DNA of 64,000 nt, from the NCBI GenBank assembly GCA_964635055.1, contig CAZWMT010000006.1, positions 70,896 to 134,895 on the forward strand. Reading direction: 5' to 3'. Source of the stretch: an uncultured Microthrixaceae bacterium (GTDB lineage Bacteria; Actinomycetota; Acidimicrobiia; Acidimicrobiales; DATDAH01). Position 1 is the stretch's first letter. Each line of letters opens with the position of its first letter. Of the stretch, positions 13,040 through 58,863 are shown in pieces. The notes under the pieces are model-generated. The model was not told the origin of the DNA, did no database searches, and saw only the letters and a program-made list of their open reading frames with translations. The position numbers and the translations under genes are program-made.

Positions 13040-15292
13040 TCAGGGCTCCGGGTCGCCCACCGCCACCGGGAAGACGCGGTCGACGGCGGTGCCGTCGCCC
13101 AGCACGCCGCCGTAGTTGTGTCCCCAGCACCGGGCCTCGCCGTTGCGGAGCAGCGCGCAGACGTGGTTGTAGGTGCCGCTCAGGGCGGTGACCTCGCCCA
13201 GGGTCCCCACGCCGCCGATGCCGGCCACTGGGACGGGGATCGCGGTCGAGCCGGAGCCGGCGGACCCGAGCGACTCCCCGGCGCACCGCGCGACGGCATC
13301 CGTCGTGACGACGCAGAGCCGGAGGTAGCCCGCCTCGATGGCATCGCTGTCGGACCGGGCGTTGGTGCCGTCCTCGGCGAGGATCGCGCTCGGGAGTGTG
13401 TGCGACCGGCCACCGCCCTCCGGGGTCTGTCCCCAACACCACGCCCGGCCGTCGGTGTGGCGCCCGCAGGAGAGGACGAAGCTGGACGAGATCTGCTCGA
13501 TCCCCGTCAGCGGTCCGGTTCCGGCGGCGTTCTGGACGACCACCGGTCGTGGCGACGCCACCTTGGTGCCGTTGCCCAGAGCGCCCTGGCTGTTCGACCC
13601 CCAGCACCGCACCTCGCCGGATTCGAGCAGTGCGCACGAGTGCCAGTAGCCGCTGGCCACCGAGGTGACGTCGGTCAGGGGGGTGTCGCCGTCGACGGCG
13701 ACGACCGCTGCAGGACGTGAGCGGTCCGTCGACGTACCGTCGCCCAACTGGCCGAACGTGTTCCGGCCCCAGCAGAGCGCTCTGCCGTCGTCGAGCACGG
13801 CGCAGGTGTGCTGGTTCCCGCGGGCATCGATCTGAGCGATCCCGGTGAGCGGGCCGGAACCGTCGATGCTCCGCACCACGACCGGCAGGCTGGCATTGGC
13901 GGAGGTCCCGTCGCCGAGCTGACCGTAGGAGTTCGCCCCCCAGCACACCGCTCGACCGGAGCCGAGCAGCGCACAGGTCCGGGCCCATCCGGCAGAGAGC
14001 CGGGTGATGTCGGTGAGCGGCCCCGAGCCCTCGGGATCCAGCACCACCACCGGGCGCATCGAGTCGGTCGTGGTTCCGTTCCCCAGTTGCCCGTGATGGT
14101 TGATGCCCCAACAACGCGCCTGGCCGCTGGTCAAGAGCGCGCAGGTGTGTTGCTCGCCGGCGGCGATCTGCTCGATGCCCGTGAGCCGGGGCGGGATGGG
14201 TCGGTTCGAGAAGGTGCAGGTGACGTCGTCACGGGGGCCGAGCGTGATGGTGGCCCGGCGGGCGGCGAGGTCGACCGTCTCGCCGGGGCACGAGATGGCG
14301 GTGAGCTCGTGCCCGGGGACGTCGTCCTGGGTGATCGTGTAGGTGCCCGGCACCAGGCCGTGAGAGGTGATCGTGCGGGGCAGCCCGGCATCGGCGTCAT
14401 CGTCCATCGAGAACGTGCTGCAGCCCGACCCGAGGCAGCCCGTGAACCCGAAGTCCTGCCCGGAGTCGGGCGCGGTGTCCTCGACCAGGGTGATCGACTG
14501 GCTCCGGTTGGTGAAGGAGCAGTACACCGCCTCACCCGGATGCACGGTGATCGTGACCCGTCGGCGGGCAAGGTCGATCACCTCCGTCTCGTTGCACGTG
14601 AGCTCGGTCAGGTCCCATGCGGCGTTCGGTGCCTGCGTGACCGTGTAGGTGCCGGTCGGAAGGGCGTTCGTCTCCACGCGGACCGGGAGGCCGGGATCGG
14701 TGTCGTCGTCGAGCGAGAACGTGCCGCAGTTCGACGACTCGTCACACCCGGTGAAGGCGAAGTCCTGAGGGCCGTTCGGTTCGGTGTTCTGAGTGATCCG
14801 GATCGTCTGCGTGCGGTTGGCGAACGTGCAGAACACACCTTGCCCGGCCTGGAGGTCGACGGTGACCTGTCGTCGGGCCAGGTCGACCACCTCGGTCGTG
14901 GTGTTGGAGCACGAGATGCCCACCAGCGGCCAGTTCGCCGTCGGCGCCTGGGTGATCACGTAGGTGCCGGGGGAGAGCCCCATGCCCGTACGGGCGCCGG
15001 GGACCGTCGGATCCGAGTCGTCGTCGAGGACGAACGAGTCACACGCCGTGCCCGAGGTGCCCATGCAACCGGTGAACGTGAAGTCCTGCGCGTGCGAGGG
15101 TGACGACGACTGGCTCACCGACAGGAACGGCAACGTCACGATGGACGGCCGTGCGCCTCGCACGAACTCGGGCGCGCCGGCGGCGGGCTCGGGGCCGGCC
15201 GCCGCCACCGGGGTGGGCTGGCTCACCGCCAGCGCCGCGGCCACGGCCGCCAGCGCCGCGACCACCGCGATGAGGTGGCGGCGGAGGCGCAT
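13040..15292 (-). CDS. Secreted RCC1-repeat protein, tandem paralog of 10768..12978
   Basis: Same architecture as its neighbour and a nearly identical signal peptide ('MRLRRHLIAVVAALAAVAAALAVSQPTPVAAA'). DNA of 15214-15292 closely matches 12900-12978. Confidence 0.85.
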   Translation of the reverse strand: MRLRRHLIAVVAALAAVAAALAVSQPTPVAAAGPEPAAGAPEFVRGARPSIVTLPFLSVSQSSSPSHAQDFTFTGCMGTSGTACDSFVLDDDSDPTVPGARTGMGLSPGTYVITQAPTANWPLVGISCSNTTTEVVDLARRQVTVDLQAGQGVFCTFANRTQTIRITQNTEPNGPQDFAFTGCDESSNCGTFSLDDDTDPGLPVRVETNALPTGTYTVTQAPNAAWDLTELTCNETEVIDLARRRVTITVHPGEAVYCSFTNRSQSITLVEDTAPDSGQDFGFTGCLGSGCSTFSMDDDADAGLPRTITSHGLVPGTYTITQDDVPGHELTAISCPGETVDLAARRATITLGPRDDVTCTFSNRPIPPRLTGIEQIAAGEQHTCALLTSGQARCWGINHHGQLGNGTTTDSMRPVVVLDPEGSGPLTDITRLSAGWARTCALLGSGRAVCWGANSYGQLGDGTSANASLPVVVRSIDGSGPLTGIAQIDARGNQHTCAVLDDGRALCWGRNTFGQLGDGTSTDRSRPAAVVAVDGDTPLTDVTSVASGYWHSCALLESGEVRCWGSNSQGALGNGTKVASPRPVVVQNAAGTGPLTGIEQISSSFVLSCGRHTDGRAWCWGQTPEGGGRSHTLPSAILAEDGTNARSDSDAIEAGYLRLCVVTTDAVARCAGESLGSAGSGSTAIPVPVAGIGGVGTLGEVTALSGTYNHVCALLRNGEARCWGHNYGGVLGDGTAVDRVFPVAVGDPEP

Positions 15293-15336
15293 GAAGCCCT
15301 ATCGGGCAATTCGACCTCGCTCTGAGCGGCCGATTG

Positions 15337-16509: not shown

Positions 16510-18549
16510 GTGCGGGTGGGGGACACCAGGGGCGCGCGTCGCTGCCGGATCATCGTTGCCGGTGCAGTCGTGTCGCTGTGCGCTTCCGTGCTGGCGGTCG
16601 CCGCGCCCGCACCGACCCCCGCACTGGCCACCGGCACCCGCTACGTCGCCCTCGGCGACTCGTACACCTCGGGCCCCCTCATCCCCAATCAGTCCGGGCA
16701 GCCGCTCGGGTGCCTCCGCTCCGACCGTGACTACCCGCACCTGGTCGCGAGCGCGCTGGGCCTCTCGCTCACCGATGTGAGCTGCAGCGGCGCCGAGACC
16801 GAGGACATGACGAACGCCCAGGGGGTGACCCCGGGCCCCAACCCGCCTCAGTTCGACGCCCTCACCGCCGACACCGACGTCGTCACGGTCGGCATCGGCG
16901 GCAACGACATCGGCTTCTCCTCGATCGTGAAGGACTGCGTGGCCATCCTGCCGATCACCGCGGTCTGCCAGCCCGACTACGTGCGCAACGGGGTCGACGA
17001 GATCAGCAACCGCATCGCCGCGACCGCACCGAAGATCGCCGCGGTGATCCATGGGATCCGGGCGCGTTCGCCGCGCGCCCGCATCTACGTGGTGGGCTAC
17101 CCGGCGATCCTGCCCGAGACCGGCGGCGGGTGCTGGCCCTCGCTGCCGCTGTCCAACGCCGACCTCCCCTGGTTGCGGGCGAAGAACAGGGAGCTCAACA
17201 CCATGTTGGCCACCCAGGCGGCGGCCAACGGTGCGCACTACGTGGACGTGTACACGCCGGGCATCGGCCACGACGCCTGCCAGGGCGACGGCACCCGTTG
17301 GGTCGAGCCGATCATCCCCAGCGGCCTCCAGGCGGCGCCGGTGCACCCCAACGCGACGGGCATGGCCGGCATGGCCGCGGCGGTCGCGGCCAGGATCACC
17401 GCCACGCCGAACGCCCCGTCCGCGCCTCGCGGCCTGACCGCAGTGGCGGGCGACGGCCAGGTGTCGTTGTCGTGGACGGCCCCGGTCGACGACGGGGGTG
17501 GCGCGGTCTCGGCCTATCGCGTGTTCCGCGATGGCGTCCTGGCCCACACCACCGCGAACGGGGCGACGAGGTCGTTCGTCGACACCGGCCGCACCAACGG
17601 TCAGACCTACCGCTACACGGTCGTCGCGGTGAACGGGGCGGGCCCAGGCCCCGCATCGGCGGCGGCGTCGGCCACCCCACTGGGGTTGCCGTCGGCTCCC
17701 GGCACCCCCACCGCGACCGGGGGTGACGGTCAGGTGACCCTGTCGTGGACGGCGCCGTCCTCGACCGGGGGATCGCCGGTCACCGGGTACCGGCTGTACC
17801 GCGACGACACAGCACTTGCGGCCACGCTCGGCGCGACCGACCTCGACTACGTGGACACCGATGTGGCCAACGGCCAGGCCTACCGGTACCGGGTGGCGGC
17901 CCGCACCGCGGTCGGTGAAGGCGCCCGCAGCGGGGAGGCCTCGGCCACGCCGGTGGCCGCCTTCACCTGCTGCCCGCCCAATGGCTACACCGACGTCGGC
18001 CCCGACCTCGACGGAGCGGTCGACTGGGCCACCTACTTCGACGTGGCCACCGGGTTCGGCGACGGCACCTTCCGGCCCGCCCGGGCGTTGAAGCGCAAGC
18101 AGGTCGTGTCGATGCTCTGGCACCTCATGGACGAGCCGAGCGGTTCGCCCCACATGTCGTACCTCGACGTGGCGACGACCGCGCCCTACGCCGAAGCCCT
18201 CGACTGGGCCACCGCGCAGGGTCTCGTGTCCGGGTACCGCGACGGTTCCTTCCGCCCGACCACCGCGGTCACGCGCGCCCAGCTCGTCGTCATGATGTGG
18301 CACCTGGTCGGCGCCCCTGCCGGGAGCCCACCGCACCCCTACACCGACACCCGCCCGGGTGCCTTCTACCAGGTGGCGCTGGACTGGGCCGCCGACCACG
18401 GGCTGGTCGACGACCCCGCCGGCGGGACGCGGTTCCGTCCGAAGGACACCGCCACCCGCGGGGTGATCGTCACCTGGCTGCACAACCTTGCCTGGACGGC
18501 CGAGGCGTGGGGTGACGTCTCGCCGCTGCCCGACGCCGTCCTGTTCTGA
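16510..18549 (+). CDS. Secreted SGNH/GDSL hydrolase - 2x fibronectin type III - 3x SLH domain protein
   Basis: GTG start at 16510 (or 16516), followed by a signal peptide. 'YVALGDSYTSG' is the GDS block. Two FN3 units ('PSAPRGLTAVAGDGQVSLSWTAP', 'PSAPGTPTATGGDGQVTLSWTAP'). C-terminal SLH-like units (e.g. 'GYRDGSFRPTTAVTRAQLVVMMWHL'). Confidence 0.8.
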   Translation: MRVGDTRGARRCRIIVAGAVVSLCASVLAVAAPAPTPALATGTRYVALGDSYTSGPLIPNQSGQPLGCLRSDRDYPHLVASALGLSLTDVSCSGAETEDMTNAQGVTPGPNPPQFDALTADTDVVTVGIGGNDIGFSSIVKDCVAILPITAVCQPDYVRNGVDEISNRIAATAPKIAAVIHGIRARSPRARIYVVGYPAILPETGGGCWPSLPLSNADLPWLRAKNRELNTMLATQAAANGAHYVDVYTPGIGHDACQGDGTRWVEPIIPSGLQAAPVHPNATGMAGMAAAVAARITATPNAPSAPRGLTAVAGDGQVSLSWTAPVDDGGGAVSAYRVFRDGVLAHTTANGATRSFVDTGRTNGQTYRYTVVAVNGAGPGPASAAASATPLGLPSAPGTPTATGGDGQVTLSWTAPSSTGGSPVTGYRLYRDDTALAATLGATDLDYVDTDVANGQAYRYRVAARTAVGEGARSGEASATPVAAFTCCPPNGYTDVGPDLDGAVDWATYFDVATGFGDGTFRPARALKRKQVVSMLWHLMDEPSGSPHMSYLDVATTAPYAEALDWATAQGLVSGYRDGSFRPTTAVTRAQLVVMMWHLVGAPAGSPPHPYTDTRPGAFYQVALDWAADHGLVDDPAGGTRFRPKDTATRGVIVTWLHNLAWTAEAWGDVSPLPDAVLF

Positions 18550-25386: not shown

Positions 25387-27123
25387 TCAGCGCTGGCCGC
25401 GCACGAGGCGGCCGGGACGGGCGCCCGTGTCGACGTCGTTGCGGCGGGTGACGGCACCGGCCACCACGGTGGCGGTGTAGCCGGACGCCTCCTGCAGCAG
25501 GCGCCGCCCGCCGCCGGGGAGGTCGTGGGCGAGCCGGGGTGAGCGCAGGGTGAGCGCGGCGTGGTCGATCACGTTGAGGTCGGCCCGTTGGCCGACCTCC
25601 ACCGTGCCCCGGTCGCCGAGGCCGTAGAGCTGGGCGGTGCGCTGGGTCTGCATCTGGATCACGCTCTCCAGCGACAACTGCGGCCCGCGGCTGCGGTCAC
25701 GGGCCCAGTGGGTCAGACCGTAGGTGGGGAGTGAGGCGTCGCAGATCATCCCGCAGTGGGCGCCCCCGTCCCCGAGCCCGAGCGCGGCCCGGGGATGGGT
25801 CATCTGCTCGCGGAGCACGTCGTGGTTGCCGTGGGTGTAGTTGAACAGCGGCAACATGAGCAGGGCCCGGCCCTCGTCCTCGCAGAGGAGGTCGTAGACC
25901 ATCTCGTCGGCGCTGACCCCGGCGGCCTCGGCCAGCGCCGCCGCCGACTGGTCAGGGGTGGGCTCGTACTCGGGTGGGTCGCCCATGACGAACAGCTTCT
26001 GGGGAATCGTGCGCAGGAAGGACGGGAGGCCGGCCCAGAGGCTGCCGTCGCCCGGCGCGTCCTCCTCGGTGAGGATGGCGGCGCGGACCTTCGGCTCGCG
26101 CAGTCGGCGCACGCGCTCGTCGAGGGGCAGGCCGGCGAGGGTCAGGTACGACGGTCGCAGCGCGAACGGGTGATGGGTCTGGAACCCGATCAGCATCCCG
26201 AACGGCCGGTTGGCGATCTGGGGGTAGATCTCGGCGCCCTCGTCGAGCGCCGTCATCGACTCCTCCATCTGCATCTTCCAGAGGTCCGGGGCGAGGTCGA
26301 CCTGCAGGACGATGAAGGTGACCGGGCGTTCGATCTCGGCGGACAGGCGGCGCATCCAGCTCATCTCCGCCGCGGCCGGCGAGAGATCGAGGCCGTCGAC
26401 ACCGGCGGGGGCGAGCTCGAAGATGGAGGCGCCGCCGCGGGCCATCGCCCGGCCGATGCCGAACAGCTCCTCTTCGGCGGCGTACGTGCCCGGGACGGGC
26501 TCGCCGTCGATGGCCCGGTGGGCGATGGTGCGCGAGGTGGAGAAGCCGAGGGCGCCGGCCTCCACCGCCTCCTGCACGATGTCGGCCATGGCCGCGATGT
26601 CCTCGGGGGTGGCAGGCTCGTTGCGGGCGCCGCGCTCGCCCATCACGTAGCCGCGCACGGCCCCGTGGGGGATCTGGGTGCCGATGTCGACCGCGAAGTG
26701 CCGGGCGTCGAGGGTGTCGAGGTACTCGGGGAAGGTCTCCCAGCCCCACGTCATCCCTTCCGCCAACGCAGTGCCGGGGATGTCCTCCACGCCCTCCATG
26801 AGCTGGATGAGCCACTCCTCCTGGCCGGGGTGGACGGGGGCGAAGCCGACGCCGCAGTTGCCCATGACGAGGGTGGTGACGCCGTGGCCCGCCGAGGGGT
26901 CGAGCGAGGTGTCCCAGGTGGCCTGGCCGTCGTAGTGGGTGTGGATGTCCACGAACCCCGGCGTGACCAGTTGGTCGGTGGCGTCGATGGTCTCGGCCGC
27001 CTCGGCCTCGATGGACGGAGCCACCTCCGTCACCAGGCCGTCCTTGACGCCGACGTCGGCGCGGCGGGCGTCTGCCCCCGTGCCGTCCACCAGCGTTCCC
27101 CCCGTGATGATCATGTCGAACAT
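25387..27123 (-). CDS. N-acyl-D-amino-acid deacylase (D-aminoacylase) family amidohydrolase
   Basis: 'MFDMIITGGTLVDGTG', 'TPGFVDIHTHYDGQATWD', 'GNCGVGFAP'. A strong SD (GAAGGAGGG) lies 11 nt upstream of the ATG. Confidence 0.85.
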   Translation of the reverse strand: MFDMIITGGTLVDGTGADARRADVGVKDGLVTEVAPSIEAEAAETIDATDQLVTPGFVDIHTHYDGQATWDTSLDPSAGHGVTTLVMGNCGVGFAPVHPGQEEWLIQLMEGVEDIPGTALAEGMTWGWETFPEYLDTLDARHFAVDIGTQIPHGAVRGYVMGERGARNEPATPEDIAAMADIVQEAVEAGALGFSTSRTIAHRAIDGEPVPGTYAAEEELFGIGRAMARGGASIFELAPAGVDGLDLSPAAAEMSWMRRLSAEIERPVTFIVLQVDLAPDLWKMQMEESMTALDEGAEIYPQIANRPFGMLIGFQTHHPFALRPSYLTLAGLPLDERVRRLREPKVRAAILTEEDAPGDGSLWAGLPSFLRTIPQKLFVMGDPPEYEPTPDQSAAALAEAAGVSADEMVYDLLCEDEGRALLMLPLFNYTHGNHDVLREQMTHPRAALGLGDGGAHCGMICDASLPTYGLTHWARDRSRGPQLSLESVIQMQTQRTAQLYGLGDRGTVEVGQRADLNVIDHAALTLRSPRLAHDLPGGGRRLLQEASGYTATVVAGAVTRRNDVDTGARPGRLVRGQR

Positions 27124-27126
27124 GTC

Positions 27127-27269
27127 GCTCTGTCCCTCCTTCGTCGGGACGGCTTCGCCATCCGGTTCGTCCTCGGTGCTGCTCCACTCCGTTGCGCAGC
27201 GTCGGTCCTGCGTCGGGACGGCTTCGCCATCCGGTTCGTCGGTGCTGCTCCACTCCGTTGCGCAGCGTC
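27127..27269. repeat. Family-B element, two tandem copies (B1, B2), supplying the 5' leader/SD of the D-aminoacylase gene
   Basis: Units 27141-27203 and 27211-27269 (CGGGACGGCTTCGCCATCCGGTTCGTC..GGTGCTGCTCCACTCCGTTGCGCAGCGTC). 27127-27169 is the reverse complement of 30744-30786, identical over 43 nt. Confidence 0.9.
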
Positions 27270-27305
27270 ACCGCCGCCGGGTGCTTCCCCCGTGACCCCA
27301 GTCTC

Positions 27306-27782
27306 TCAGGTGGTGGGGCCCGTGGGGTCCTCGGGGGTGTGGTCGATGCCCGTGGTCGAGTAGCCGTCCATGATGTGCTCCATCCACCACACCGGCGCGG
27401 CGTCGAGCAGCCCTTGGAGGTCGGGGTAGTCCCACCAGCGGGTGAGGCGGCCCTCGAAGTCGATCTCGTGCACCGAGACGAAGCGCACCGTGAAGGTCTC
27501 GCCGGTGTGCCAGTGCCACTCCTCGGCGTGCTCGGTCATCACGCACTGCTCGTCGGCGACGATGCGCCCGGGGTGGTGGAGGATGTCCTCCAGGGGCTCG
27601 AGGCCGAGGCGCAGACGCGCGGCGATCTGTGCCGGGCCGATGGCCACGTCCTCGTCGGGCGTGAACACGTCGGTGTACTGCCCGTCCGGCGTGAAGTACG
27701 CGCCCACCGCCTCGAAGTCGCGCCGGTAGAGGTCCTGCCAGAAGCGCTCGATCAGTTCCCTGTTGGCGTCGGCTGTCCGCAT
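27306..27782 (-). CDS. SnoaL/NTF2-like (limonene-1,2-epoxide-hydrolase-like) protein
   Basis: 'NRELIERFWQDLYRRDFEAVGAYFTPDGQYTD'. Size is 158 aa. Fold call is from memory. Confidence 0.7.
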   Translation of the reverse strand: MRTADANRELIERFWQDLYRRDFEAVGAYFTPDGQYTDVFTPDEDVAIGPAQIAARLRLGLEPLEDILHHPGRIVADEQCVMTEHAEEWHWHTGETFTVRFVSVHEIDFEGRLTRWWDYPDLQGLLDAAPVWWMEHIMDGYSTTGIDHTPEDPTGPTT

Positions 27783-27814
27783 GCCGCGACGTTAAGGCGT
27801 CCACGGCTGGGTCG

Positions 27815-27870
27815 GGAACTGGCTCCCGATTCGACGGTCCTGGCGGTCGAATCGGGAGCCAGGACGGATC
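27815..27870. repeat. Family-A palindromic element (A3)
   Basis: GGAACTGGCTCCCGATTCGAC-ggtcctggcg-GTCGAATCGGGAGCCAGGACGGATC. The 17-bp stem is perfect. It lies in the divergent region between 27782 (-) and 28016 (+). Confidence 0.9.
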
Positions 27871-28015
27871 TGCGGACGGCCACGCCGCGCGGTCCCTCGG
27901 CTCAGGGGTCCCGACCCGCCCTGGCGCCAGGAAGTGACTTTGCGCCCTAGGCCCACGAGGCGGACCGGTCGATCATGGGTACGGGCGGCCCGCAGTCACC
28001 CATGAGGAGCGAACG

Positions 28016-30553
28016 ATGCGAGCGATCCGGATCTCGACCTCGGTGGTGGCGACGACGGCGCTCGTCGCCCTGCTCACGTTGGCCTCGGGCCCTGCCGTGG
28101 CCGCACCGGCGCGGGCCCACATCGTCACCGCGTCGCCGGAGGTGACCGTCGTGTCGGTCGCGAGCGCCGGCGATTACCGGCGGGCGCTCGCTGACCTCTC
28201 GCGCCTGGTGGGGACGGGCTCCAGTCGCATCGAGGTCACCGCCGACTTCGCCATGAGCGGCTCGGCGTGGCCCACCTACGACGGGTCCCGCTCGCTCACC
28301 GTCGACGGCAACGGCCACCGGGTGGACGGGGGCCCGGCCCTGCGCCCGTTCCTGCTGGTCGAGGGCGGTCCGGCGGTGAAGGTGCAGGACGTCACCCTCG
28401 CCGGCTTCCGCAACTCGGCGATCATCGCTACGCCCGATGTGCTCGACCGGTGGGGCCAGCTGATCGTGCGGCGCAGCCGGTTCAGCGGGAACTCGGCCTC
28501 TGGACCGGGTGGCGCGATCGCCGCGGCGTGGGTGGACGTCAACCAGAGCACGTTCGACGGCAACCACGCGACCGGTGAGGACCACTGGGGCGGCGGCGCC
28601 GTCTACGCGCAGTACTACCTGACCGCCACCCGCAGCACCTTCACCGGGAACTCGTCCGACTTCGACGCGGGCGCGCTCCAGTCGTCGGGCGACCTCTTCC
28701 TGAACGCATCGACCGTCGTCGACAACACCTCCCCGGCCACGTCCGTACACGTCGACGACACCCTCGAGTCGATGGGGTCGGTCGTCGCCAACACCCTCGG
28801 CGGTGGTGAGGGCTGCGCGGTCGGAACCACCAATGACCACGGCAGCTTCTCGTCCGACGCATCGTGCGGCTTCGACATCACCGACGCCACCGATCCCGGC
28901 CTGGCACCGCTGGCCGACAACGGCGGCGCCACGCCCACCCGCATGCCTGGCGAGGACTCGCCCCTCGTCGATGCCGGGCCCGGCGGTGACCCGCTGTCCG
29001 ACCTGTTCTGCTACCCGACCGACCAGCGTGGGGTGCGCCGCCCGGTGGGCGGGGCGTGCGACCTCGGTGCGGTCGAGCGGGGCTGGGGCCAAGTGGTGAC
29101 GACCGGTGCCGACGCCGGGCCGGGCTCGTACCGCCAAGCCGTCGTCGACGCGTCGGCCGCGACCCTGCCGGTGCGCATCGACCTCGACCAGCAGCAGGTG
29201 TCACTCACCAGCGGGGACGTCGTCTACAGCGGCGTTCAACCGCTGGAGGTGCACGGCGTGCCGGGCGCGGGGATCGACGGTGGCGGTGCCGGTCAGATCC
29301 TGCGGGCCACGGTCTCGCCGTCGGTCTCGGTGGTGGACCTGGTCCTGCAGCACGGGGCGTCGGACGACTCGGGCGGCGCGGTCGAGGTCGAGGCCACCGG
29401 CGGGGACCTGACGATCGAGCGCTCCGCCCTCCTCGACAACTCGGCCGACGTGTACGGGGGCGCGGCCGGCTCGCAGGGCACCCTGGTGGTGCGCAACTCG
29501 ACGGTGTCGGGCAACGAGGCCGGCATCGGCGGCGGCGGGGTCGCCGCCGCGGGGGTGCTCACCCTCGAGCACGCCACGGTCACCGACAACACCTCGGGCG
29601 TGGGGGCCAACGCTGCGGGCTTCTCGGCCATCCACTCCTTCGGCTCCGTCCTCGCCGAACCGCACGGCCCGTCGAACTGCTCGTTCTCCGGGGCCACCGT
29701 GTCGGAGGGTCACAACTACTCGACCGACACCACCTGCAACCCGGGCACCGGCACCGACGTGGCCAGCGGTGCCGATCCCCGCCTCGGACCGGCGCGCGAC
29801 AACGGGCGGGCGACCCCCACACGTTTCCCGCTGGCGGGATCACCGCTCGTCGACGCCATCCCCGTCGAGGACTGCCGGGCGCCGTTCGACCAGCGTCAGG
29901 TCGACCGCCCGTTCCCGGTCGAGGGCCCGTGCGACATCGGTGCCATCGAGGGCGTGTACCCGGGCCACCACTTCACCGACGTCCCGGACAAGTACGACGC
30001 CGCCGTGCGCTGGATCTCGAGCGACGTCAACGATCCCGCGCTGATGACCCCCTACGCCGGCGGGGCGTTCCTCCCGAGGCTCAGCCTGACCCGCGGCAAG
30101 CTGGCGCTCACGCTCTACCGCCAGGCCGGTACGCCCGACGTGTCGTCGTTGCCGCCCGTCGCCTTCACCGACGTGCCCGCCGCGCAACGAGACGCCGTGC
30201 GGTGGGCGGTCGGCACCGGCATCCTCGCCGGGCGCACGCCGACCCGCTTCGGGACCGGCGACCCCAGCACACGTGTCCAGGTGGCCGGTGCCCTCTACCG
30301 TGCCGCCGGGTCACAGGACGTCACCCCGTTCCCGTTCCACGGGCTCGATGACGTCCCCGCATGGGCCGACGACGCGGTCACGTGGGCCGTGCACCACGGG
30401 ATCATGGTCGGGTCCGGAGGGTCGTTCCACTCCCGGGAGCCGGTCACCCGCGGCCAGTTCGCCCGATCCGACTACCGGATGGTCATCGACCCGGGAGCCT
30501 GGGCCGACCCGTCGGCGGCGCCGTCGACGGTGCCGTTCCGCCCCTCACCCTGA
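28016..30553 (+). CDS. Secreted right-handed beta-helix (PMP/choice-of-anchor-Q-like) protein with 3 C-terminal SLH domains
   Basis: SD GAGGAG is followed by ATG 28016, then a signal peptide 'ALVALLTLASGPAVAAPA'. Beta-helix repeats ('GGAI..', 'F.GN.A') are present. The motifs 'DQRGVRRPVGGACDLGAVE' and 'DQRQVDRPFPVEGPCDIGAIE' follow. SLH units: 'FTDVPDKYDAAVRW', 'FTDVPAAQRDAVRW', 'LDDVPAWADDAVTW'. Confidence 0.75.
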   Translation: MRAIRISTSVVATTALVALLTLASGPAVAAPARAHIVTASPEVTVVSVASAGDYRRALADLSRLVGTGSSRIEVTADFAMSGSAWPTYDGSRSLTVDGNGHRVDGGPALRPFLLVEGGPAVKVQDVTLAGFRNSAIIATPDVLDRWGQLIVRRSRFSGNSASGPGGAIAAAWVDVNQSTFDGNHATGEDHWGGGAVYAQYYLTATRSTFTGNSSDFDAGALQSSGDLFLNASTVVDNTSPATSVHVDDTLESMGSVVANTLGGGEGCAVGTTNDHGSFSSDASCGFDITDATDPGLAPLADNGGATPTRMPGEDSPLVDAGPGGDPLSDLFCYPTDQRGVRRPVGGACDLGAVERGWGQVVTTGADAGPGSYRQAVVDASAATLPVRIDLDQQQVSLTSGDVVYSGVQPLEVHGVPGAGIDGGGAGQILRATVSPSVSVVDLVLQHGASDDSGGAVEVEATGGDLTIERSALLDNSADVYGGAAGSQGTLVVRNSTVSGNEAGIGGGGVAAAGVLTLEHATVTDNTSGVGANAAGFSAIHSFGSVLAEPHGPSNCSFSGATVSEGHNYSTDTTCNPGTGTDVASGADPRLGPARDNGRATPTRFPLAGSPLVDAIPVEDCRAPFDQRQVDRPFPVEGPCDIGAIEGVYPGHHFTDVPDKYDAAVRWISSDVNDPALMTPYAGGAFLPRLSLTRGKLALTLYRQAGTPDVSSLPPVAFTDVPAAQRDAVRWAVGTGILAGRTPTRFGTGDPSTRVQVAGALYRAAGSQDVTPFPFHGLDDVPAWADDAVTWAVHHGIMVGSGGSFHSREPVTRGQFARSDYRMVIDPGAWADPSAAPSTVPFRPSP

Positions 30554-30579
30554 CGGGCCGCGCGGACCGGCTGTCAGCA

Positions 30580-30635
30580 GATCCGTTCTGGCTCCCGATT
30601 CGACCGCCAGGACGGTCGAATCGGGAGCCAGTTCC
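30580..30635. repeat. Family-A palindromic element (A4), inverted relative to A3/A5
   Basis: The reverse complement matches A3 at all but about 4 positions over about 66 nt, flanks included. It starts 27 nt after the stop at 30553. Confidence 0.9.
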
Positions 30636-30710
30636 CGATCTGTCCGCTCGACCCGTCCTGGGTCGTGGGAGGGTGGTGGTGATCGGCGGGGTGGGGCGTG
30701 GGGACGTGGG

Positions 30711-30786
30711 AGGCTGCGCAGCGGAGCGGAGCAGCGGCGCCGTCGAACCGGATGGCGAAGCCGTCCCGACGAAGGAGGGACAGAGC
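30711..30786. repeat. Family-B element (B3), inverted relative to B1/B2, supplying the 5' leader/SD of the downstream gene
   Basis: GCTGCGCAGCGGAGCGGAGCAGCGGCGCCGTCGAACCGGATGGCGAAGCCGTCCCGACGAAGGAGGGACAGAGC, followed directly by agcATG (30790). Confidence 0.9.
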
Positions 30787-30789
30787 AGC

Positions 30790-31509
30790 ATGGAGAAGCT
30801 GATGTACGTGGTGCGGGACCCGGCACGGGGGAGTGGTGACGGACTGCGCGACGCGCTGATCGGGGCCACCGACCGTTTCGTCGCCGCGGGCGCACGGGCG
30901 CTGACCGTCGACGCCGACGACTCGGCGTCGGACGTGGCGCCACCCCTGCCGCCCCCCGAGGACGAGCCGAGCTTCCGAGCGCTCGTGTCGGTGTGGCTCG
31001 CGAGCTACGAGCGGCGGGGCCCGATCGAGGCGCTGCTCGACGAGCTGGTGCCCGACTACGACGGCTACCTGGTGGTCGAGTCGCTCTACACCGACTACGG
31101 CGAGAACGCCCACGCCGCGCCCCGCGACTGGCCCGACGGCCGGCGCTCGCCCGGCCTGCTCACCGTGACCCTGCTGCAGAAGCCCGATGCCCTGTCGTAC
31201 GAGGAGTGGATCGACCACTGGCACGGGCACCAGTCACCCATGTCCGAGGCCATGCAGCCCCGCTCCCGCTACGTGCGCAACGAGGTGGTGCGGGGCGTGA
31301 CCCACGACGCCCCGCCGTGGCGGGCCATCGTCGAGGAGGCGTGGCCCAGCCCGGAGCACATCACCGACCCGTTCCTCTTCTACTCCGCCTCCTCGCAGGA
31401 CGAGCTGAACGCCAACCTGGCCACGATGCTCGACAGCGTCAACACCCTGACCGACCTGTCCACCCTGCGGGTCGCCACGATGAGCGAGTACCTCCTCCGC
31501 TCGCTGTGA
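30790..31509 (+). CDS. Hypothetical protein, possibly EthD-like dimeric alpha/beta-barrel
   Basis: ATG 30790 follows a strong SD. Codon bias is high. 'MEKLMYVVRDP...' and 'LLTVTLLQKPDALSYEEWIDHWHGHQSP' resemble EthD-type halves. The function call is weak. Confidence 0.6.
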   Translation: MEKLMYVVRDPARGSGDGLRDALIGATDRFVAAGARALTVDADDSASDVAPPLPPPEDEPSFRALVSVWLASYERRGPIEALLDELVPDYDGYLVVESLYTDYGENAHAAPRDWPDGRRSPGLLTVTLLQKPDALSYEEWIDHWHGHQSPMSEAMQPRSRYVRNEVVRGVTHDAPPWRAIVEEAWPSPEHITDPFLFYSASSQDELNANLATMLDSVNTLTDLSTLRVATMSEYLLRSL

Positions 31510-33369: not shown

Positions 33370-34149
33370 ATGTCGAAGCGGCGCCGCACCCTCGCGGTCT
33401 CTCTGGTCGGGCTCGTGCTCGCGGGGGCGACGATCGCACTCCGCTTGAGCGGCACCACCTCGGTCGAGACCTCCGCGCTGGCGCAGAGCCTGGCCGGCGT
33501 CGAGCCCGCCCCCCCGTCGTCCTCCACCACCAGCACCACCGCCGACCCTGCGACCGAAGGGTTCATGGCCGCGCACGCCGGGGTCCCGTCGGTCGCCCTC
33601 TACGACTCACCCACCGCCACCCAGCCCGTGGGGACACTGGCCAACCCGACGGCGGAGAACGTGCCCCTGGCCTTCCTGGTGCGGGCCGAGCAGGGCACCC
33701 GCTATCGCGTGGCCCTGCCCGAACGACCGAACGGCGCCGAGGCCTGGGTGGACAAGCAGGCGGTGTTCACCAACCCGGTGCCCAACCGGATCGTGGTGGA
33801 GGTGGGCGCACGCCGTCTCACCGTGTACCGCGGCCACAGTGACGAGGTCGTGATGGCCACGAACGTGGCCGTCGGCAAGGACGCCACGCCCACCCCGCTC
33901 GGCCACTTCTACGTCGACATCTCCGTGGCCCAGAACACCTACACCCCGTGGATCCTGAGCGTGGCCGGCTTCTCCGACGTGCTGCAGAGCTTCGGGGGCG
34001 GAAGGGGCCAGATCGCCATCCACGGGTGGAGCGACACGTCGGTGCTGGGCCAGAACGTCAGCAACGGCTGCGTGCGGGTGAGCTTCGACGACCTGTGGCG
34101 CCTGCGCGATCTCGCGCCCGTGGGCACCCCGGTCGACATCGTCGCGTGA
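33370..34149 (+). CDS. L,D-transpeptidase (YkuD domain), membrane-anchored
   Basis: ATG 33370 ('MSKRRRTLAVSLVGLVLAGATIAL'). Catalytic motif 'IAIHGWSDTSVLGQNVSNGCVRV'. Confidence 0.85.
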   Translation: MSKRRRTLAVSLVGLVLAGATIALRLSGTTSVETSALAQSLAGVEPAPPSSSTTSTTADPATEGFMAAHAGVPSVALYDSPTATQPVGTLANPTAENVPLAFLVRAEQGTRYRVALPERPNGAEAWVDKQAVFTNPVPNRIVVEVGARRLTVYRGHSDEVVMATNVAVGKDATPTPLGHFYVDISVAQNTYTPWILSVAGFSDVLQSFGGGRGQIAIHGWSDTSVLGQNVSNGCVRVSFDDLWRLRDLAPVGTPVDIVA

Positions 34150-34203
34150 CACTGGTTCCGACTCCGTCGGAACGGCTTCGCCATCGGGGCTCGTCGGCGT
34201 CGG
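34150..34203. repeat. Family-B element, partial copy (B6), filling the gap between convergent stops
   Basis: CACTGGTTCCGACTCCGTCGGAACGGCTTCGCCATCGGGGCTCGTCGG. It starts 1 nt after the TGA (34147-49) and ends 2 nt before the kinase stop (34205). It aligns with 58648-58700. Confidence 0.8.
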
Positions 34204-34204
34204 G

Positions 34205-35383
34205 TCAGTAGCCGAAGGGCACCAGCAGTCGCCCGTCCACCCAGGCCTCCCAGCCGTTGGAACAGCGGATGTGGGCCCAGTCGCCGTGCCAACCCAGCAC
34301 CCCGACGTCCAGGTCGGGGTCGAGGATCGCGGTCACCGGCAGGCGCAGGTCGGGCCCGGCCCACGCGTGCATGCCGGTCCAGGGCACCCGGTGGGTGGGC
34401 TGGTAGGTGTGCGAGGGCGACGCCACCGTGGCGTAGCCGGCATCGGCCACAGCGGTGTTCGAGGTGATCACGCGCTCGACCGCGGTGGCGGCCAGCCCCC
34501 CACCGTCCACGTCCTCGGCGGTCCGGGGAGGCGCCACCCCGTCGGCGGGCGCCACGTCGAGGCGGCGCGACAGCTCCTGGAGCGACCGGGCCACCTCCGC
34601 CACCGACGACGGACGTCGGGCCGCGTCCTTGGCCATGGTGGACCGCACCAGCGTGGCCACCTCGTCGGGCACGCCCGACGCCCGGAGATCGGCCGGCTCC
34701 TCGTCCAGGATGCGCCGGAGCAGCGACGGGAGGGCCTCGTCGCGGTGGGACGGGAAGGGCGGTCGCCCGCTGATCAGCTCGTACAGGGTGGCCCCGAACG
34801 AGTAGATGTCCGAGGCCGCCGAGGGTGAGTGGCCGTTGATCACCTCGGGCGGCGCGTAGAGGAAGCTGGCGGTCACCCCAGCGGTGTGGGTGGTCTGCTC
34901 ACCGGCGATGCGAGCGATCCCGAAGTCGGCGAGCTGCGGGGAGCCGTCGGCGGTGGTCAACACGTTGGCCGGCTTCAGGTCGCAGTGCGTCACGCCGGCG
35001 TCGTGAGCTGCCGCCAACGCCCCGGCCAGTTGGCCTCCCACGCGGAGGGTGTCGGCCCAGCCCAGCGCGCCGGTCCGGGCCAACCGATCGGCGAGTGAGC
35101 CGCCCGAGAGGTACGCCATCACGAGGTAGGGGCGGCCCTCGGCGTTGAAGCCGGCGTCGTGCACCGTGACGATGCCGGGGTGCTCGGACAGCACCCCCAG
35201 TGCCTCACATTCGCGTTCGAAGCGTCGCCGGGCCCGGTCGTCGACGTCGACCGTGATCACCTTCACCGCCACCGGCCGTTTGAACGCGGGCTGGAAGGCC
35301 TTGTACACGACCGCGAACCCGCCCGAGCCGATGCGCACCGGGTCGGAGAGCCCCGGGATCCCCAGATCCGTCGGGTCGGTCAC
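34205..35383 (-). CDS. Ser/Thr protein kinase with C-terminal SH3-like domain
   Basis: GTG start at 35383. 'IGSGGFAVVYKA', 'VAVKV', 'HCDLKPANVL', 'DFGIA', 'YAPPE'. C-terminus 'GWHGDWAHIRCSNGWEAWVDGRLL'. No TM segment seen. Confidence 0.9.
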   Translation of the reverse strand: MTDPTDLGIPGLSDPVRIGSGGFAVVYKAFQPAFKRPVAVKVITVDVDDRARRRFERECEALGVLSEHPGIVTVHDAGFNAEGRPYLVMAYLSGGSLADRLARTGALGWADTLRVGGQLAGALAAAHDAGVTHCDLKPANVLTTADGSPQLADFGIARIAGEQTTHTAGVTASFLYAPPEVINGHSPSAASDIYSFGATLYELISGRPPFPSHRDEALPSLLRRILDEEPADLRASGVPDEVATLVRSTMAKDAARRPSSVAEVARSLQELSRRLDVAPADGVAPPRTAEDVDGGGLAATAVERVITSNTAVADAGYATVASPSHTYQPTHRVPWTGMHAWAGPDLRLPVTAILDPDLDVGVLGWHGDWAHIRCSNGWEAWVDGRLLVPFGY

Positions 35384-35482: not shown

Positions 35483-36940
35483 CTAGGAGACGCTGAACTC
35501 CACAGGTGTGGAGTCGGTGCCGCCGCCGCTCAGCGTCCCACCGTCGCTGGTGACCTCTTGGCCCCCGACCAGGACGGTGAGCGTGAAGTCGGTGGTGTCG
35601 CCCAGGTTGCGTGCAAATGCCGAGTAGCTGCCCGACGGTGCCGTGCCGGTCGGCCAGAAGATGTTCTCGACGTGCGGGCCGGAGTCGGCGCACGTGCTGC
35701 CCGGGATGCAGTCCACGTCGAGCTGGCCACCGCTGGAGGACGTGGGTGAGCTGAAGCTGATCTCCTCGCCGGAGGGGTCGATGACGTGCAGGTCGACGTC
35801 GGACCCGCCACTCCACCGCAGGGTCACCTGGACGTCGCCCGTCCCCAGCACCGGGCCCTCGGTGGTGGCCGTCGACGTGTCGGGCGGGCTGCTGGTGCTG
35901 GTGGTGCCTCCCGACCCCGGGGAGTCGTCGCCTCCATCGGTGCCGGTCGGCCGGTTGAAGGTGACCGTGGTGCTCACGTTGTTGGTGATGTTGGTGACCA
36001 CGAAGATGTCGATGTTCTGCACCACGGTGATCCGGGTGATGTTGGTCGGGGAGAACCCGGTCCATCGGGTGCCGGTGAACGTGGGTGTGGACGAGGTGGC
36101 GCGGGGCTCGAGCAGGGGGTTGCCGCAGGCGCACCGGGCGCGCGGAATGCCTCGGGCGTCGACCAGCACGGCGGTGCCCGCCTGCAGCACGGTCTGGTAG
36201 GGGGTGGCCCGCCCGTTGCGGAAGCCGTGGTTGGTGACACGGGTGTCGAAGCGCAGGCGCATGGGGGTGAGGGAGCGGATGAAATCGGGGATGTCGCCGA
36301 CCGCGATGCCCTGCACACCCGCCCAGGCCCGCGCTTTGTCCTGGTTCTCGGTGAGGAAGCTGATGAGCTGCTCGCGGTCGCAGGTGGACTGGTTCTGCGT
36401 GCCGCCGTACAGACCGGGCTGCGACCCGACCTGGCTCACGACCTCGATGGAGGAGTTGTTCCCCCCGGAGCCGCCACCGGTGGCGGTGCCGGTGATGCCG
36501 GTGTCCTGGCCGGATGCAGAGACGGTCTGGGTGAACGGGTCCCGGCCGACCTCACCCGCGGGATCGAGGAAGATCTCGCCCGCGGACGCCTCGTCGTCAT
36601 CGGTCAACACGAGGACGCCGACGATGAGCAGCACCACCAGCAGGGCGGCGCCACCGAGGATGCCCCACCGCGCGCCGGGGCTCATCCCGGGCTTGCGGGG
36701 CGGCGGTGCGCCGTAGCCGGGAGGTGCACCGTAACCACCGGGGGGTCCCCCGGGAGGAGCGCCGTAGCCCCCCGGCGCGCCGTAGCCGCCGGGTGCGCCG
36801 TAGCCCCCCGGCGGGCCGTAGCCCCCGGGTGATGGATAGCCGCCCGGCGGCGGCGTGGGCGTTCCCCCCGGCGGTCCGAGCGGGCCCGGCGGCGGTCCGG
36901 AGGGCCCTGACGGCGGCCCCGACGGGGGAGGCATGGACAT
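35483..36940 (-). CDS. Single-pass membrane protein: Pro/Gly-rich cytoplasmic N-terminus, extracellular conserved domain (DUF6777-like?) and C-terminal beta-sandwich
   Basis: ATG 36940 ('MSMPPPSGPPSGP...GGYGAPGGYGAPGGYGAP'). TM 'WGILGGAALLVVLLIVGVLVL'. 'TRVTNHGFRNGRATPYQTVLQAGTAVLVDARGIPRARCACGNPL'. Tail 'VQVTLRWSGGSDVDLHVIDPSGEEISF'. Domain names are from memory. Confidence 0.7.
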   Translation of the reverse strand: MSMPPPSGPPSGPSGPPPGPLGPPGGTPTPPPGGYPSPGGYGPPGGYGAPGGYGAPGGYGAPPGGPPGGYGAPPGYGAPPPRKPGMSPGARWGILGGAALLVVLLIVGVLVLTDDDEASAGEIFLDPAGEVGRDPFTQTVSASGQDTGITGTATGGGSGGNNSSIEVVSQVGSQPGLYGGTQNQSTCDREQLISFLTENQDKARAWAGVQGIAVGDIPDFIRSLTPMRLRFDTRVTNHGFRNGRATPYQTVLQAGTAVLVDARGIPRARCACGNPLLEPRATSSTPTFTGTRWTGFSPTNITRITVVQNIDIFVVTNITNNVSTTVTFNRPTGTDGGDDSPGSGGTTSTSSPPDTSTATTEGPVLGTGDVQVTLRWSGGSDVDLHVIDPSGEEISFSSPTSSSGGQLDVDCIPGSTCADSGPHVENIFWPTGTAPSGSYSAFARNLGDTTDFTLTVLVGGQEVTSDGGTLSGGGTDSTPVEFSVS

Positions 36941-43347: not shown

Positions 43348-43871
43348 CCCGCGCGGTTGCGCCGCTTGCGCCGTAGCGCCCAGCTGAGCGCGAACAGCAC
43401 CGCGGTGAGGGCCACGCCGATGCCCACCTTCTTGGCGGGCCCGGACCTGGCTGCGTCGTCGCGGGGGCTGGGCGCCGTCGTGGCGCCGGAGGCGGGCACG
43501 GGGGCGGCCCCGGTCGTGACCGGCTCGGGCTCGGCGACCGGCTCGGCCTCGGGCTCCGCGACAGCCTCGGGCTCGGCGACAGCCTCGGGCTCGGCGACAG
43601 CCTCGGGCTCGGCGACAGGCTCTGGCTCTGGCTCTGGCTCTGGCTCGGGCTCGGGCTCGGGCACGGCGAGAGCCTCGGCGGCCGGTTCGGATTCGGCAAC
43701 CAGCTCGGGTTCGGGCTCGGCGATCGTCTCGGGCTCGGCGACCGGCTCCGGGTCGTCGGCCGCAGGGTCGGAGTCGTCGGCGGCGACGTCGAGCAGGTCG
43801 TCCACGGGTGCGGGCTCGTCGCTCGCCGGCTTGGGGCGGGCGTGGCCCTTCTGGGGGTCGTAGGTGGCCAT
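43344..43871 (-). CDS. Acidic, Pro/Glu/Ala repeat-rich protein with C-terminal TM anchor (tail-anchored), ParA-associated
   Basis: The start is 7 nt after the ParA stop. 'AEPEAV' x4 and 'EP' x8 repeats. It ends with '[27 protein letters not shown]'. Confidence 0.7.
43558..43660. repeat. In-frame coding tandem repeats: 18-mer (GCGACAGCCTCGGGCTCG) x3 then hexamer (GGCTCT/GGCTCG) x7
   Basis: Read directly: 18-mers at 43558, 43576 and 43594, and hexamers over 43617-43658. Confidence 0.9.
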
Positions 43872-57198: not shown

Positions 57199-58647
57199 AT
57201 GATCGACCGGGCCGAGCACGCCGCGACCAGGCGGCTGCACCGCGAGCTGCGCTCACCGCTTCCCGCCGAGGGCGACGCCGGCGGGGTCGACCACGTCGAC
57301 GACCTGCGCGAGCTGTGGGACGGTCTCGTCGCCGACGCCATGCCCGTGGAGCCGATCGTGGAGTCGATCCCTCCGGTCGAGTCGGCCACACCGGTGGCGC
57401 CGCTGCCCCCGCTGCCCACCCGGACCAACCGCAGGGGAGCCGAGACGGTGGCGCCCGAGTGGCCCGCGGTGGCGCCACGGGTGGCAGGCCGCACCGTGAT
57501 CCCCACCGGCGAGCCCGACCTGGTGATCCTGCCGTCGGGCGAGCCGGCCACGCGCACCGCGCCGCCCGGTCCCGCAAGCTCCCCCGGTCCGACGCCCGGC
57601 ACGATCGCCACACCCGCGGGCGACGCCCTCCGCCCCCCCGCCGGCGCGGCCGCTCCCACCGATGCCGGCGCAGACGCCGACGGGCCCGAGCCCGATCCGG
57701 AGGTCGGGGCGAAGAAGCCGTCGCGACGCGAGCGCCGGGCGGCCAAGCGGTTGGCGAAGGACGAGAAGCGTGGTGCCCGTCTCGAACTGCGCCGGCACCG
57801 CATCCTGCCCCGCACCGTCATCGGCATCACCATGATGCTCCTCGCCGCCGCGGTCGGCGCCGCGTTCTCGGGAGCGCTGCTCTACGCCTATTACGACTGG
57901 CGCCTCTCGACCAACGAGGACCGGGTGGGCGTCCTGGCCGAGAGCCTGCAGCAGCGGCTCACCGACGCGGGGGCCTCCATCGACGAAGCCCAGCAACAGG
58001 CGCTGGCCGAGTTGCAGGATCGGGCCGGGCCCCTGATCGACCAGAAGAGCGACGCCGTGGCCATGGCCGACCTCACCCCGGTGGTGCTGCCCTCCACCTG
58101 GTTCGTGTCGACCCTCGACGAGAACGGCCAGCCGTCGGTGGGCACCGCGTTCGTCGTGTCGTCCGACGACACCAGCACCCTCCTGTTGACCTCGTACCGG
58201 GCCGTGTCGGCATCGACCACCCAGCCCGGCCCGGAGATCCAGCTGACCAACGACGGTGGCGACCCGGTGGTGGCGCAGCTCTACAGCTGGGACCCCGAGC
58301 ACGATCTGGCCCTGCTCACCATCGACCGGGGCGGCCTGACGCCGTTGACTTGGGCCACCGGCGACGACGCCGCGGTTACGGGGGAGCGGGTGTACGCGGC
58401 CAGCGGCGTGGGGGCCGAGGGCGTGACCTTCAGCCCCGGGACCGTGCTCGACCAGAGCGCCGACGGCATCCAGATGACCGCACCGGTCGGCAGCTCGTGG
58501 CAAGGAGGCCCGGTGGTGACCCAGGACGGCAAAGTGGTGGCGGTGGCGTCGCTGGCCTACCAGCCGCTCGGCTTCAACCCCGGCCAGGTGCCCTTCGCCC
58601 CGCCCGTCGACGCCGCCTGCGAGCGCGTCCTCGACTGCGGCGCGTAA
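57199..58647 (+). CDS. Membrane-anchored trypsin-like (S1C-fold) domain protein, catalytic residues apparently degenerate
   Basis: GGGAG SD followed by ATG 57199. Pro-rich cytoplasmic region, then TM 'VIGITMMLLAAAVGAAFSGALLY'. 'GTAFVVSSDDTSTLLLTSYRAV', 'EHDLALLTI', 'GSSWQGGPVV'. Confidence 0.7.
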   Translation: MIDRAEHAATRRLHRELRSPLPAEGDAGGVDHVDDLRELWDGLVADAMPVEPIVESIPPVESATPVAPLPPLPTRTNRRGAETVAPEWPAVAPRVAGRTVIPTGEPDLVILPSGEPATRTAPPGPASSPGPTPGTIATPAGDALRPPAGAAAPTDAGADADGPEPDPEVGAKKPSRRERRAAKRLAKDEKRGARLELRRHRILPRTVIGITMMLLAAAVGAAFSGALLYAYYDWRLSTNEDRVGVLAESLQQRLTDAGASIDEAQQQALAELQDRAGPLIDQKSDAVAMADLTPVVLPSTWFVSTLDENGQPSVGTAFVVSSDDTSTLLLTSYRAVSASTTQPGPEIQLTNDGGDPVVAQLYSWDPEHDLALLTIDRGGLTPLTWATGDDAAVTGERVYAASGVGAEGVTFSPGTVLDQSADGIQMTAPVGSSWQGGPVVTQDGKVVAVASLAYQPLGFNPGQVPFAPPVDAACERVLDCGA

Positions 58648-58863
58648 CACTGGCTCGGACTCCGTCCGAGCGGCTTCGCCACCCGGTTCGTCGGTGCCGC
58701 TGCTCCGCTCCGCTGCGCAGCGTGGCCTCTCGCGGTGGCTCGGACCCGTGTGGTCGGCTTCGCCATCCGGTTCGTCGGTGCTGCTGCTCCGCTCCGCTCC
58801 GCTCCGCCGCGTGGCCTCTCGCGGTGGCTCGGACCCGTCCGCTGGACCCGTCGAAGGTCAGCG
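58648..58863. repeat. Family-B element, tandem array of ~89-nt units (B4, B5, partial B5')
   Basis: Units 58648-58736 and 58737-58825, plus a partial unit at 58826-58863. The array begins 1 nt after the TAA (58645-47) and lies between convergent genes. Confidence 0.9.

Follow-up and report, generated by a model that had tools for sequence, protein, structure and literature searches.

A dispersed intergenic repeat with a Shine-Dalgarno motif forms the identical leaders of two unrelated genes in an uncultured Acidimicrobiales lineage

We analyzed a stretch of 64,000 nucleotides (nt) from an uncultured Microthrixaceae bacterium (contig CAZWMT010000006.1, positions 70,896 to 134,895; hereafter the window, with position 1 as its first letter), in which two unrelated genes share an identical leader. 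This shared leader is the 3' part of a dispersed intergenic repeat of about 90 nt, here referred to as family B or simply B, which belongs to an uncultured lineage of the Acidimicrobiales. Comparative evidence led us to hold, with fair confidence, that B is a mobile repeat with a built-in ribosome-binding site (RBS), that is, a portable translation-start cassette.

Within the window the shared 43-mer, CGAACCGGATGGCGAAGCCGTCCCGACGAAGGAGGGACAGAGC, is found at exactly two places, 30744-30786 on the plus strand and 27127-27169 on the minus strand, and it did not occur in any of 100 dinucleotide-preserving shuffles. An earlier sequence-only reading of this DNA had claimed that the two segments are identical over 43 nt and that three nucleotides and an ATG follow each of them; both statements are correct, the match being exact and the three nucleotides being AGC or GAC. 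The ATG at 30790 starts a conserved hypothetical gene (30790..31509, plus strand; 239 amino acids, aa) that has no Pfam match and a native start MEK..., and whose homologues are widespread in Acidimicrobiales. The ATG at 27123 starts a gene for an N-acyl-D-amino-acid deacylase (D-aminoacylase, Amidohydro_3; 25387..27123, minus strand; 578 aa), the name given to its homologues. The B copies in front of them extend over 30701..30789 (plus strand; covariance-model match 30701-30793, 85 bits) and 27124..27212 (minus strand; match 27119-27212, 86.5 bits). Each contains the Shine-Dalgarno (SD)-like motif AAGGAGG, at 30772..30778 on the plus strand, 11 nt before ATG 30790 by direct reading, and at 27135-27141 on the minus strand. 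The perfect 43/43 match is limited to the window genome; in related loci (designated L with a number) the two leaders differ mutually by 1-4 nt, and the deacylase leader of the window reads CAGAGC where L242, L156 and L238 have CAAAGC.

We then compared orthologous sites with and without the repeat. This comparison shows that B was inserted and that the ATGs of both genes are native. At the deacylase site the window (the reference, 100%) and L242 (deacylase 97% identical) carry two B copies, L238 (90%) and L156 carry one, and L241, L243 and L240 are empty. In L241 (86% aa identity to the window deacylase) the stop codon TGA of the upstream SnoaL-like gene is followed by gagactcctgac and the ATG, so that the junction reads TGAgagactcctgacATG; in L243, which was found via its neighbouring hypothetical gene (78%), TGA is followed by aagactcctggc and the ATG, and the junction reads TGAaagactcctggcATG. 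Both are 12-nt spacers with no strong SD. In L240 (80%), which is likewise empty, the spacer measures 61 nt and includes an AAGGGGG of its own, and the gene starts with GTG. The left flank TGA[G/A]AGACT can still be made out in the window, L242 and L156, where the site is filled, and on the other side the B tail reaches the native deacylase ATG and leaves the N-terminus MFD... unaltered. As a result of the insertion, 118-182 nt separate the SnoaL-like gene from the D-aminoacylase gene in place of the 12-nt junction. The second window copy at this site is a truncated one in tandem upstream (27213..27278, minus strand, by the covariance model), without the SD and the 3' stem of the leader copy.

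Six loci have B in front of the hypothetical gene, namely the window, L242, L156, L241, L243 and L240. A 56%-identical orthologue in another context and without B has a start, ATGGAGAAG, that overlaps the stop codon of the upstream gene, and the MEK.. N-terminus read from ATG 30790 is kept in it. Both genes have a same-strand gene upstream: the SnoaL-like gene (27306..27782, minus strand) lies 5' of B and the deacylase gene, and an SLH/beta-helix gene (28016-30553, plus strand) lies before the hypothetical gene. The window elements therefore occupy intercistronic or leader positions. The SLH/beta-helix gene stands between the SnoaL-like and hypothetical genes only in the window and L242; in L156, L241, L243 and L240 the latter two genes are immediate neighbours that diverge, and B lies only some 30-75 nt away from where SnoaL begins.

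Judged from these loci, the two window leader copies are independent insertions, an older one at the hypothetical gene and a younger one at the D-aminoacylase gene, and they do not delimit a single mobile unit. This bears on the idea that the two inverted copies mark the ends of a composite mobile element, as its terminal inverted repeats, with the SnoaL and SLH genes inside. The pair is indeed inverted over 83 nt with 88% complementarity, 3.5 kb apart and with the SD ends outward. However, L156 has both leaders without the SLH gene, L241, L243 and L240 have only the copy at the hypothetical gene, and no target-site duplication was seen. The composite transposon was thus discarded on synteny, and we regard it as the least credible of all explanations considered here.

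Six solid family-B copies were found in the window by pattern, repeat and covariance-model searches, which bears out the earlier claim that the 43-nt segment is the end of a repeat. Besides the two leader copies and the truncated one, a copy with hairpins 1 and 2 (described below) lies between convergent genes at 34143..34246 (minus strand, covariance model), its 3' end flush with the TGA at 34147-34149, and two tandem copies (58641-58733 and 58742-58805) occupy 58641..58805 on the minus strand, the 3' end being flush with the TAA of a convergent gene. Two weak covariance-model candidates, 17987-18098, which lies in coding-like sequence, and 9341-9412, were set aside. Outside the window we collected about 70 copies, from L022/L072 and from metagenome contigs. 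L022/L072 belong to the Acidimicrobiales metagenome-assembled genome (MAG) AAO_AS.63, whose deacylase is 97% identical to that of the window. A first scan of public contigs with a loose 17-mer gave 118 loci, of which 116 were chance matches, true copies being confined to L022 and L072; the catalogue then reached its present size through a 19-mer scan of metagenome contigs. The family consensus is ..GACGTTGCGGAGCGGAGCGGAGCnGCnGCGCCGACGAACCGGATGGCGAAGCCGCnCCGACGnAGGAGGAGCCAGTGTGAnG.

The same tail was found directly before at least seven unrelated genes. In typical copies AGGAGG is followed by 5 nt, an ATG or GTG and then TGA(TG), and such copies precede DUF3097, luciferase-like and other genes. 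A SnoaL_2 gene is also among those with the repeat tail directly before the start. The subfamily to which the window copies belong, with the stem GTCCC/GGGAC, has the tail A[AGT][AC]GC[ACG]A[GC]C-ATG, and it precedes the deacylase and hypothetical genes as well as an AMP-binding gene (L122) and an inositol-monophosphatase-family (Inositol_P) gene (L197/L212). Gene contexts in metagenome loci come from a crude caller based on GC content at third codon positions with a check by eye, and single calls may be wrong. Taken together, the B-free orthologous loci and the recurrence of one tail before unrelated genes support the earlier proposal that a repeat element supplies the leader including its SD. 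In one case the element has probably donated more than the SD. In L124 (~300-345) the start codon of a luciferase-like monooxygenase gene is a GTG that lies within the tail of the repeat (ccaatGTGAAGTTC), and the B-free orthologue in L131 (~6085-6110) has its own ATG, cgcgtATGCGGTTC; the L124 element thus probably gave the start codon and part of codon 2. In L189 and L140 (~1018-1100) a B copy lies just 5' of a small open reading frame (ORF), whose product we judged, on sequence alone, to resemble a VapB-type antitoxin (..GRTNIVIDDELV..).

The structure of B was assessed by covariation among 55 aligned copies. Hairpin 2 (30763..30781, plus strand; 27132-27150, minus strand, in the deacylase leader) reads GTCCC-GACGAAGGA-GGGAC, with a 5-bp stem and a purine-rich 9-nt loop. 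Its cells are paired in 95.6% of cases, and two-sided changes occur in four of the five pairs, the stem variants being GTCCC/GGGAC, GCTCC/GGAGC, GGCCC/GGGCC and GCTGC/GCAGC; some copies have an 8-bp stem with a GGA loop instead. Further upstream, hairpin 0 (30713..30735, plus strand) consists of a GCTG...CAGC stem and a loop of GGAGC repeats, and two of its four outer pairs covary (UA in 23 versus GC in 21 copies; GC in 41 versus CG in 6). The number of GGAGC units in this loop varies among copies from 2 to at least 6 (58780-58812 in the window; L197, ~1660-1700), and every unit includes GGAG. Hairpin 1 (30750..30766, plus strand) is GGATGGC-GAA-GCCGTCC with one U.G pair, and only its core GGC-GAA-GCC (30754-30762) is found family-wide. 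The core pairs and the U.G pair are invariant, in 36 of 52 copies the A-U pair is not formed, and across the family the right arm changes to suit hairpin 2. The observed covariation score was reached by none of 500 shuffles, and it collapsed when the pairing partners were slid by 1-3 columns. Covariation therefore supports hairpin 2 and hairpin 0, and not the 7-bp hairpin 1. U.G pairs (27 copies in hairpin 0, and 55 of 55 at the U.G position of hairpin 1) together with fold z-scores of -2.2 on the plus strand versus -1.15 on the reverse strand indicate the SD-bearing strand as the folding strand.

These results bear on the proposal that the leader is an expression platform: a riboswitch, thermosensor or riboregulator acting in cis, whose SD would be freed or covered as hairpins 1 and 2 replace each other. 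Both hairpins can be drawn where the sequence-only reading placed them, and in the GTCCC subfamily they overlap in the GTCC tract with similar predicted energies when folded separately (-9.8 kcal/mol for hairpin 1 and -7.5 kcal/mol for hairpin 2); moreover, the plus-strand leader folds better than shuffled sequence. However, the extended hairpin 1 neither is conserved in the family nor covaries. The SD was said to have its 3' half buried by hairpin 2; the last two G of AAGGAGG are paired, while AAGGA lies in the loop. When both leaders were folded by partition function at 20 to 55 C, the picture was the same and hardly varied with temperature, AAGGA being largely unpaired and only the last GG paired. 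In the window subfamily the two hairpins can compete, then, and in either predicted conformer the SD core would be single-stranded, which points to display of the SD rather than to thermometer or riboswitch logic. In addition, B has no conserved multi-helix ligand pocket, serves unrelated genes and also occurs outside leaders, at 3' ends and in arrays. The earlier reading had recognised no known riboswitch class, and Rfam gave no match at gathering thresholds or at E <= 10. A switch is thus very unlikely.

Instead, an SD shown in a loop and not hidden suggests a constitutive portable RBS that eases insertion into operons. Under the explanation that we favour, the parts of the element would be hairpin 0 with its GGAGC loop, the GGC-GAA-GCC mini-hairpin, hairpin 2 with its loop and stem spelling AAGGAGG, and a short tail ending at the start codon. 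The repeat would spread and then persist directly at gene boundaries. In front of a gene of the same direction it would serve as 5' leader or as spacer between cistrons, and ribosome recruitment would pass to the SD of the repeat. At the deacylase gene B was inserted right up to the native ATG and placed AAGGAGG 10-12 nt before it.

Sequence conservation after insertion is consistent with such a role. Before the hypothetical gene, the orthologous B copies share 95, 90, 92 and 80% identity with that of the window, compared with 88-97% at codon positions 1+2, 57-81% at third codon positions and 24-55% in the spacer upstream of B. GGAGG is unchanged in all ten orthologous leader copies compared. 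The most decayed copy, that of L240, has a broken 3' stem in hairpin 2 (GGCAC) and a TTG start codon, yet its AAGGAGG is intact.

The earlier reading had also considered a mobile promoter/RBS cassette. The comparative evidence described above favours the RBS part, and the promoter part found no support. Known elements, Neisseria REP2 and Correia, do have promoters (PMC3184786), and in L156, L241 and L243 the ~30-75 nt from B to the divergent SnoaL start leave little room for a promoter elsewhere. However, no sigma-70-like promoter was found in 27000-31000, and TA does not occur as a dinucleotide in either the window copy or the family consensus. An actinobacterial TANNNT -10 box is therefore impossible within B, and transcription must originate upstream. 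Many copies, moreover, point into the 3' ends of genes. That B is a promoter cassette driving downstream genes is therefore improbable. We infer that the element is transcribed together with its gene and that AAGGAGG is the SD in use.

The placement of the family as a whole is less one-sided than the two window leaders would suggest. After orthologues were collapsed by hand, about 14 loci have a same-direction gene start just 3' of the element and about 20 have a convergent stop, and about half of the copies meet the 3' end of a convergent gene or sit within tandem arrays. Family B as a whole thus has no preference for start codons. This fits the alternative that B is purely selfish or structural, similar to REP or MITE elements, with hairpins that serve propagation, mRNA 3'-end stability or termination; AAGGAGG would then be incidental, and both genes would be translated by coupling, leaderless initiation or a downstream ATG. 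We consider it a doubtful alternative, yet the one with the best claim among those opposed to an RBS function.

Several observations, some of which also favour a selfish repeat, weigh against the portable RBS. First, the purine loop and the GGAGG core are also present in convergent-facing and array copies. The core was counted in 15 of 19 start-proximal, 11 of 26 convergent and 7 of 20 array-internal copies, a small sample confounded by orthologous copies, and after orthologue collapse by hand the enrichment is modest, about 10/14 start-proximal versus 9/20. Second, the gap from GGAGG to ATG is long at 10-12 nt, whereas SDs that do not come from B lie 3-10 nt from starts in related loci. Third, about half of the lineage's genes have no SD and look leaderless, so that an SD is not obligatory there. 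Fourth, some gene callers prefer a second ATG, at 30802, which GGAG precedes by 6 nt, and give 235-aa products. Fifth, gene conversion among family members, instead of selection for translation, could cause the conservation between orthologous copies. Finally, the presence of the element in the mRNA and the use of its SD by ribosomes are both inferred. As to these points, the hypothetical gene has two in-frame ATGs, 30790 and 30802, which are 12 nt apart. Among the called genes of L242, L240, L243, L245 and L238, about half have no SD within 25 nt of the start, and a TANNNT-like hexamer stands about 6-7 nt before many starts in these loci, for example gcgTTACGGTcccgacATG at SnoaL, which suggests that leaderless mRNAs may be widespread in the lineage.

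On the other side, a purely selfish repeat accounts poorly for several features. The 118-182 nt of hairpin-rich RNA between SnoaL and the D-aminoacylase gene remove close-range coupling, and the lack of a -10-like element between B and the deacylase ATG excludes a leaderless start there. AAGGAGG survives where the stem has decayed in L240, and the arrangement of typical copies, AGGAGG, 5 nt and ATG or GTG, is that of an initiation site. Searches of 27000-31000 for a terminator consensus or U-tract terminator found none.

The convergent copies show a further regularity. In about ten independent loci the convergent stop codon follows directly after the ..CCARTG end of the element with a 0-nt gap; stop-flush loci include 34147-34149 and ~58645-58652 in the window, and L195, L135, L022, L162, L211 and L174. 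At the YkuD site (stop codon 34147-34149) the window reads TGA/CACTGG and L242 reads TAA/CACTGG, and the empty orthologue of L240 has the same C-terminus (..IVA, stop TAG), so that the YkuD stop codon is native and B lies exactly after the stop. Comparison of filled and empty sites revealed no target-site duplication at the D-aminoacylase and YkuD sites. A TNA-type target duplication, proposed from three flanking bases by eye, was dropped because about five copies match and about eight do not, and as for terminal inverted repeats, the family-B ends ..TGACGYTGC and CCARTGT.. agree at only 5-7 of 9 positions. It is conceivable, although doubtful, that B is a mobile element that targets gene boundaries, integrates exactly at stop or start codons and offsets its own insertion. 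Its initiation module would comprise the SD in the loop, an ATG or GTG 5 nt on and an immediate TGA often overlapping a further ATG, in other words a start-stop mini-ORF that would let the downstream cistron re-initiate; the start-codon donation in L124, compared with L131, could be one such case. If true, this would be codon-boundary-directed insertion without terminal inverted repeats or target-site duplication, which has not been described for bacterial repeats.

As a portable RBS, B would have several implications. The filled and empty sites would show how a small repeat rewires translation initiation, turning a 12-nt operon junction into a structured 118-182-nt leader with its own strong SD. 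Such elements would explain identical leaders on unrelated genes, and they caution against taking shared, structured leaders for riboswitches. This may be a general route by which intergenic repeats stay tolerable in the operons of compact, high-GC genomes, and the flush placement at starts and stops hints at an unusual insertion rule.

Other repeats were also noted in the window. Immediately upstream of B at the hypothetical gene, and outside the shared leader, lies a palindromic repeat of a separate family, family A (30552..30647), which has a ~44-nt perfect palindrome CTGGCTCCCGATTCGAC...GTCGAATCGGGAGCCAG in units of about 90 nt. Its sites in the window are 27812-27898 and 30552-30647 and others near 19253, 22149 and 50545, and the SLH/beta-helix gene is flanked by a pair of copies in inverted orientation (87 nt, 90% complementary). 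In L242, a 97%-related MAG locus, the SLH gene is present and an approximate pattern search found family A only near 14005, that is, at neither SLH-flanking position, which means that A insertions are polymorphic between close relatives. Within long ORFs we observed periodic DNA repeats with units of 165-190 nt and 306-315 nt (10800-15300), 18-nt periodic repeats of GGCTCGGCGACAGCCTCG type (43500-43810) and GCGCCGTAGCC repeats (36700-36840). These ORFs (10.8-15.3, 36.7 and 43.5-43.8 kb) probably encode repetitive-domain or low-complexity proteins.

We finally compared B with known systems. ROSE and fourU thermometers and riboswitch expression platforms resemble it in that a hairpin overlaps the SD directly upstream of the start. 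In B, however, the SD core is in the loop with only 2 nt paired, the alternative helix is not conserved, no conserved state sequesters the SD, and copies are not confined to 5' leaders. The REP/BIME, ERIC, Correia, BOX/RUP/SPRITE and SMAG elements are likewise GC-rich, palindromic and extragenic, often lie between convergent genes after stops, occur in either orientation and are sometimes clustered, but none of them is defined by a built-in SD and start codon. More specifically, the B consensus has no GTAG head of the REP/BIME type and no RAYT gene was seen, though no search was aimed at RAYT; unlike Correia, B showed no terminal inverted repeats or TA duplication, and without terminal inverted repeats and target-site duplications it does not belong with the MITEs.

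The MIRUs, at 40-100 nt, share several features with B, being actinobacterial, located between the genes of operons, arranged in variable tandem arrays, present or absent at orthologous sites and inserted at start codons (PMC3184786, PMC12548453). Insertion of a MIRU apparently takes place at a start codon, its internal ORF being coupled to the gene that is hit (PMC12548453), and does minimal harm to expression (PMC3184786, PMC12548453). The variable arrays of MIRUs have their counterpart upstream of the D-aminoacylase gene, where 0, 1 or 2 B copies are found in different genomes. The internal ORF of MIRUs is translationally coupled to their neighbours, whereas B has no frame-preserving ORF: array units are spaced by 67, 68, 69, 70, 72 and 83-88 nt, mostly not multiples of 3, which leaves no continuous ORF through the arrays, and a MIRU-like one was rejected for this reason. 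Many family-B tails end in ATG/GTG-TGA-TG, a start/stop overlap that is the sole resemblance to the MIRU coupling junction, and the tetranucleotide direct repeats at filled MIRU sites were not seen for B. MIRU and B were compared by their described features.

B is also close in organisation to Neisseria REP2 and Borrelia IR-A/IR-B, whose promoter, RBS and ATG lie directly before genes (PMC3184786). Like these repeats of about 100-150 nt, B is multicopy, dispersed and intergenic, contains stem-loops and an RBS, ends at the initiation codon and stands before unrelated ORFs (PMC3184786). It differs from them in having no promoter-like sequence, and REP2 lies mainly upstream of genes, while about half of the B copies are at convergent stops or in arrays; B also has three hairpins with the SD in a loop and comes from a different phylum. 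The likeness to REP2 is one of organisation, and family B is best regarded as a new family within a functional class already known.

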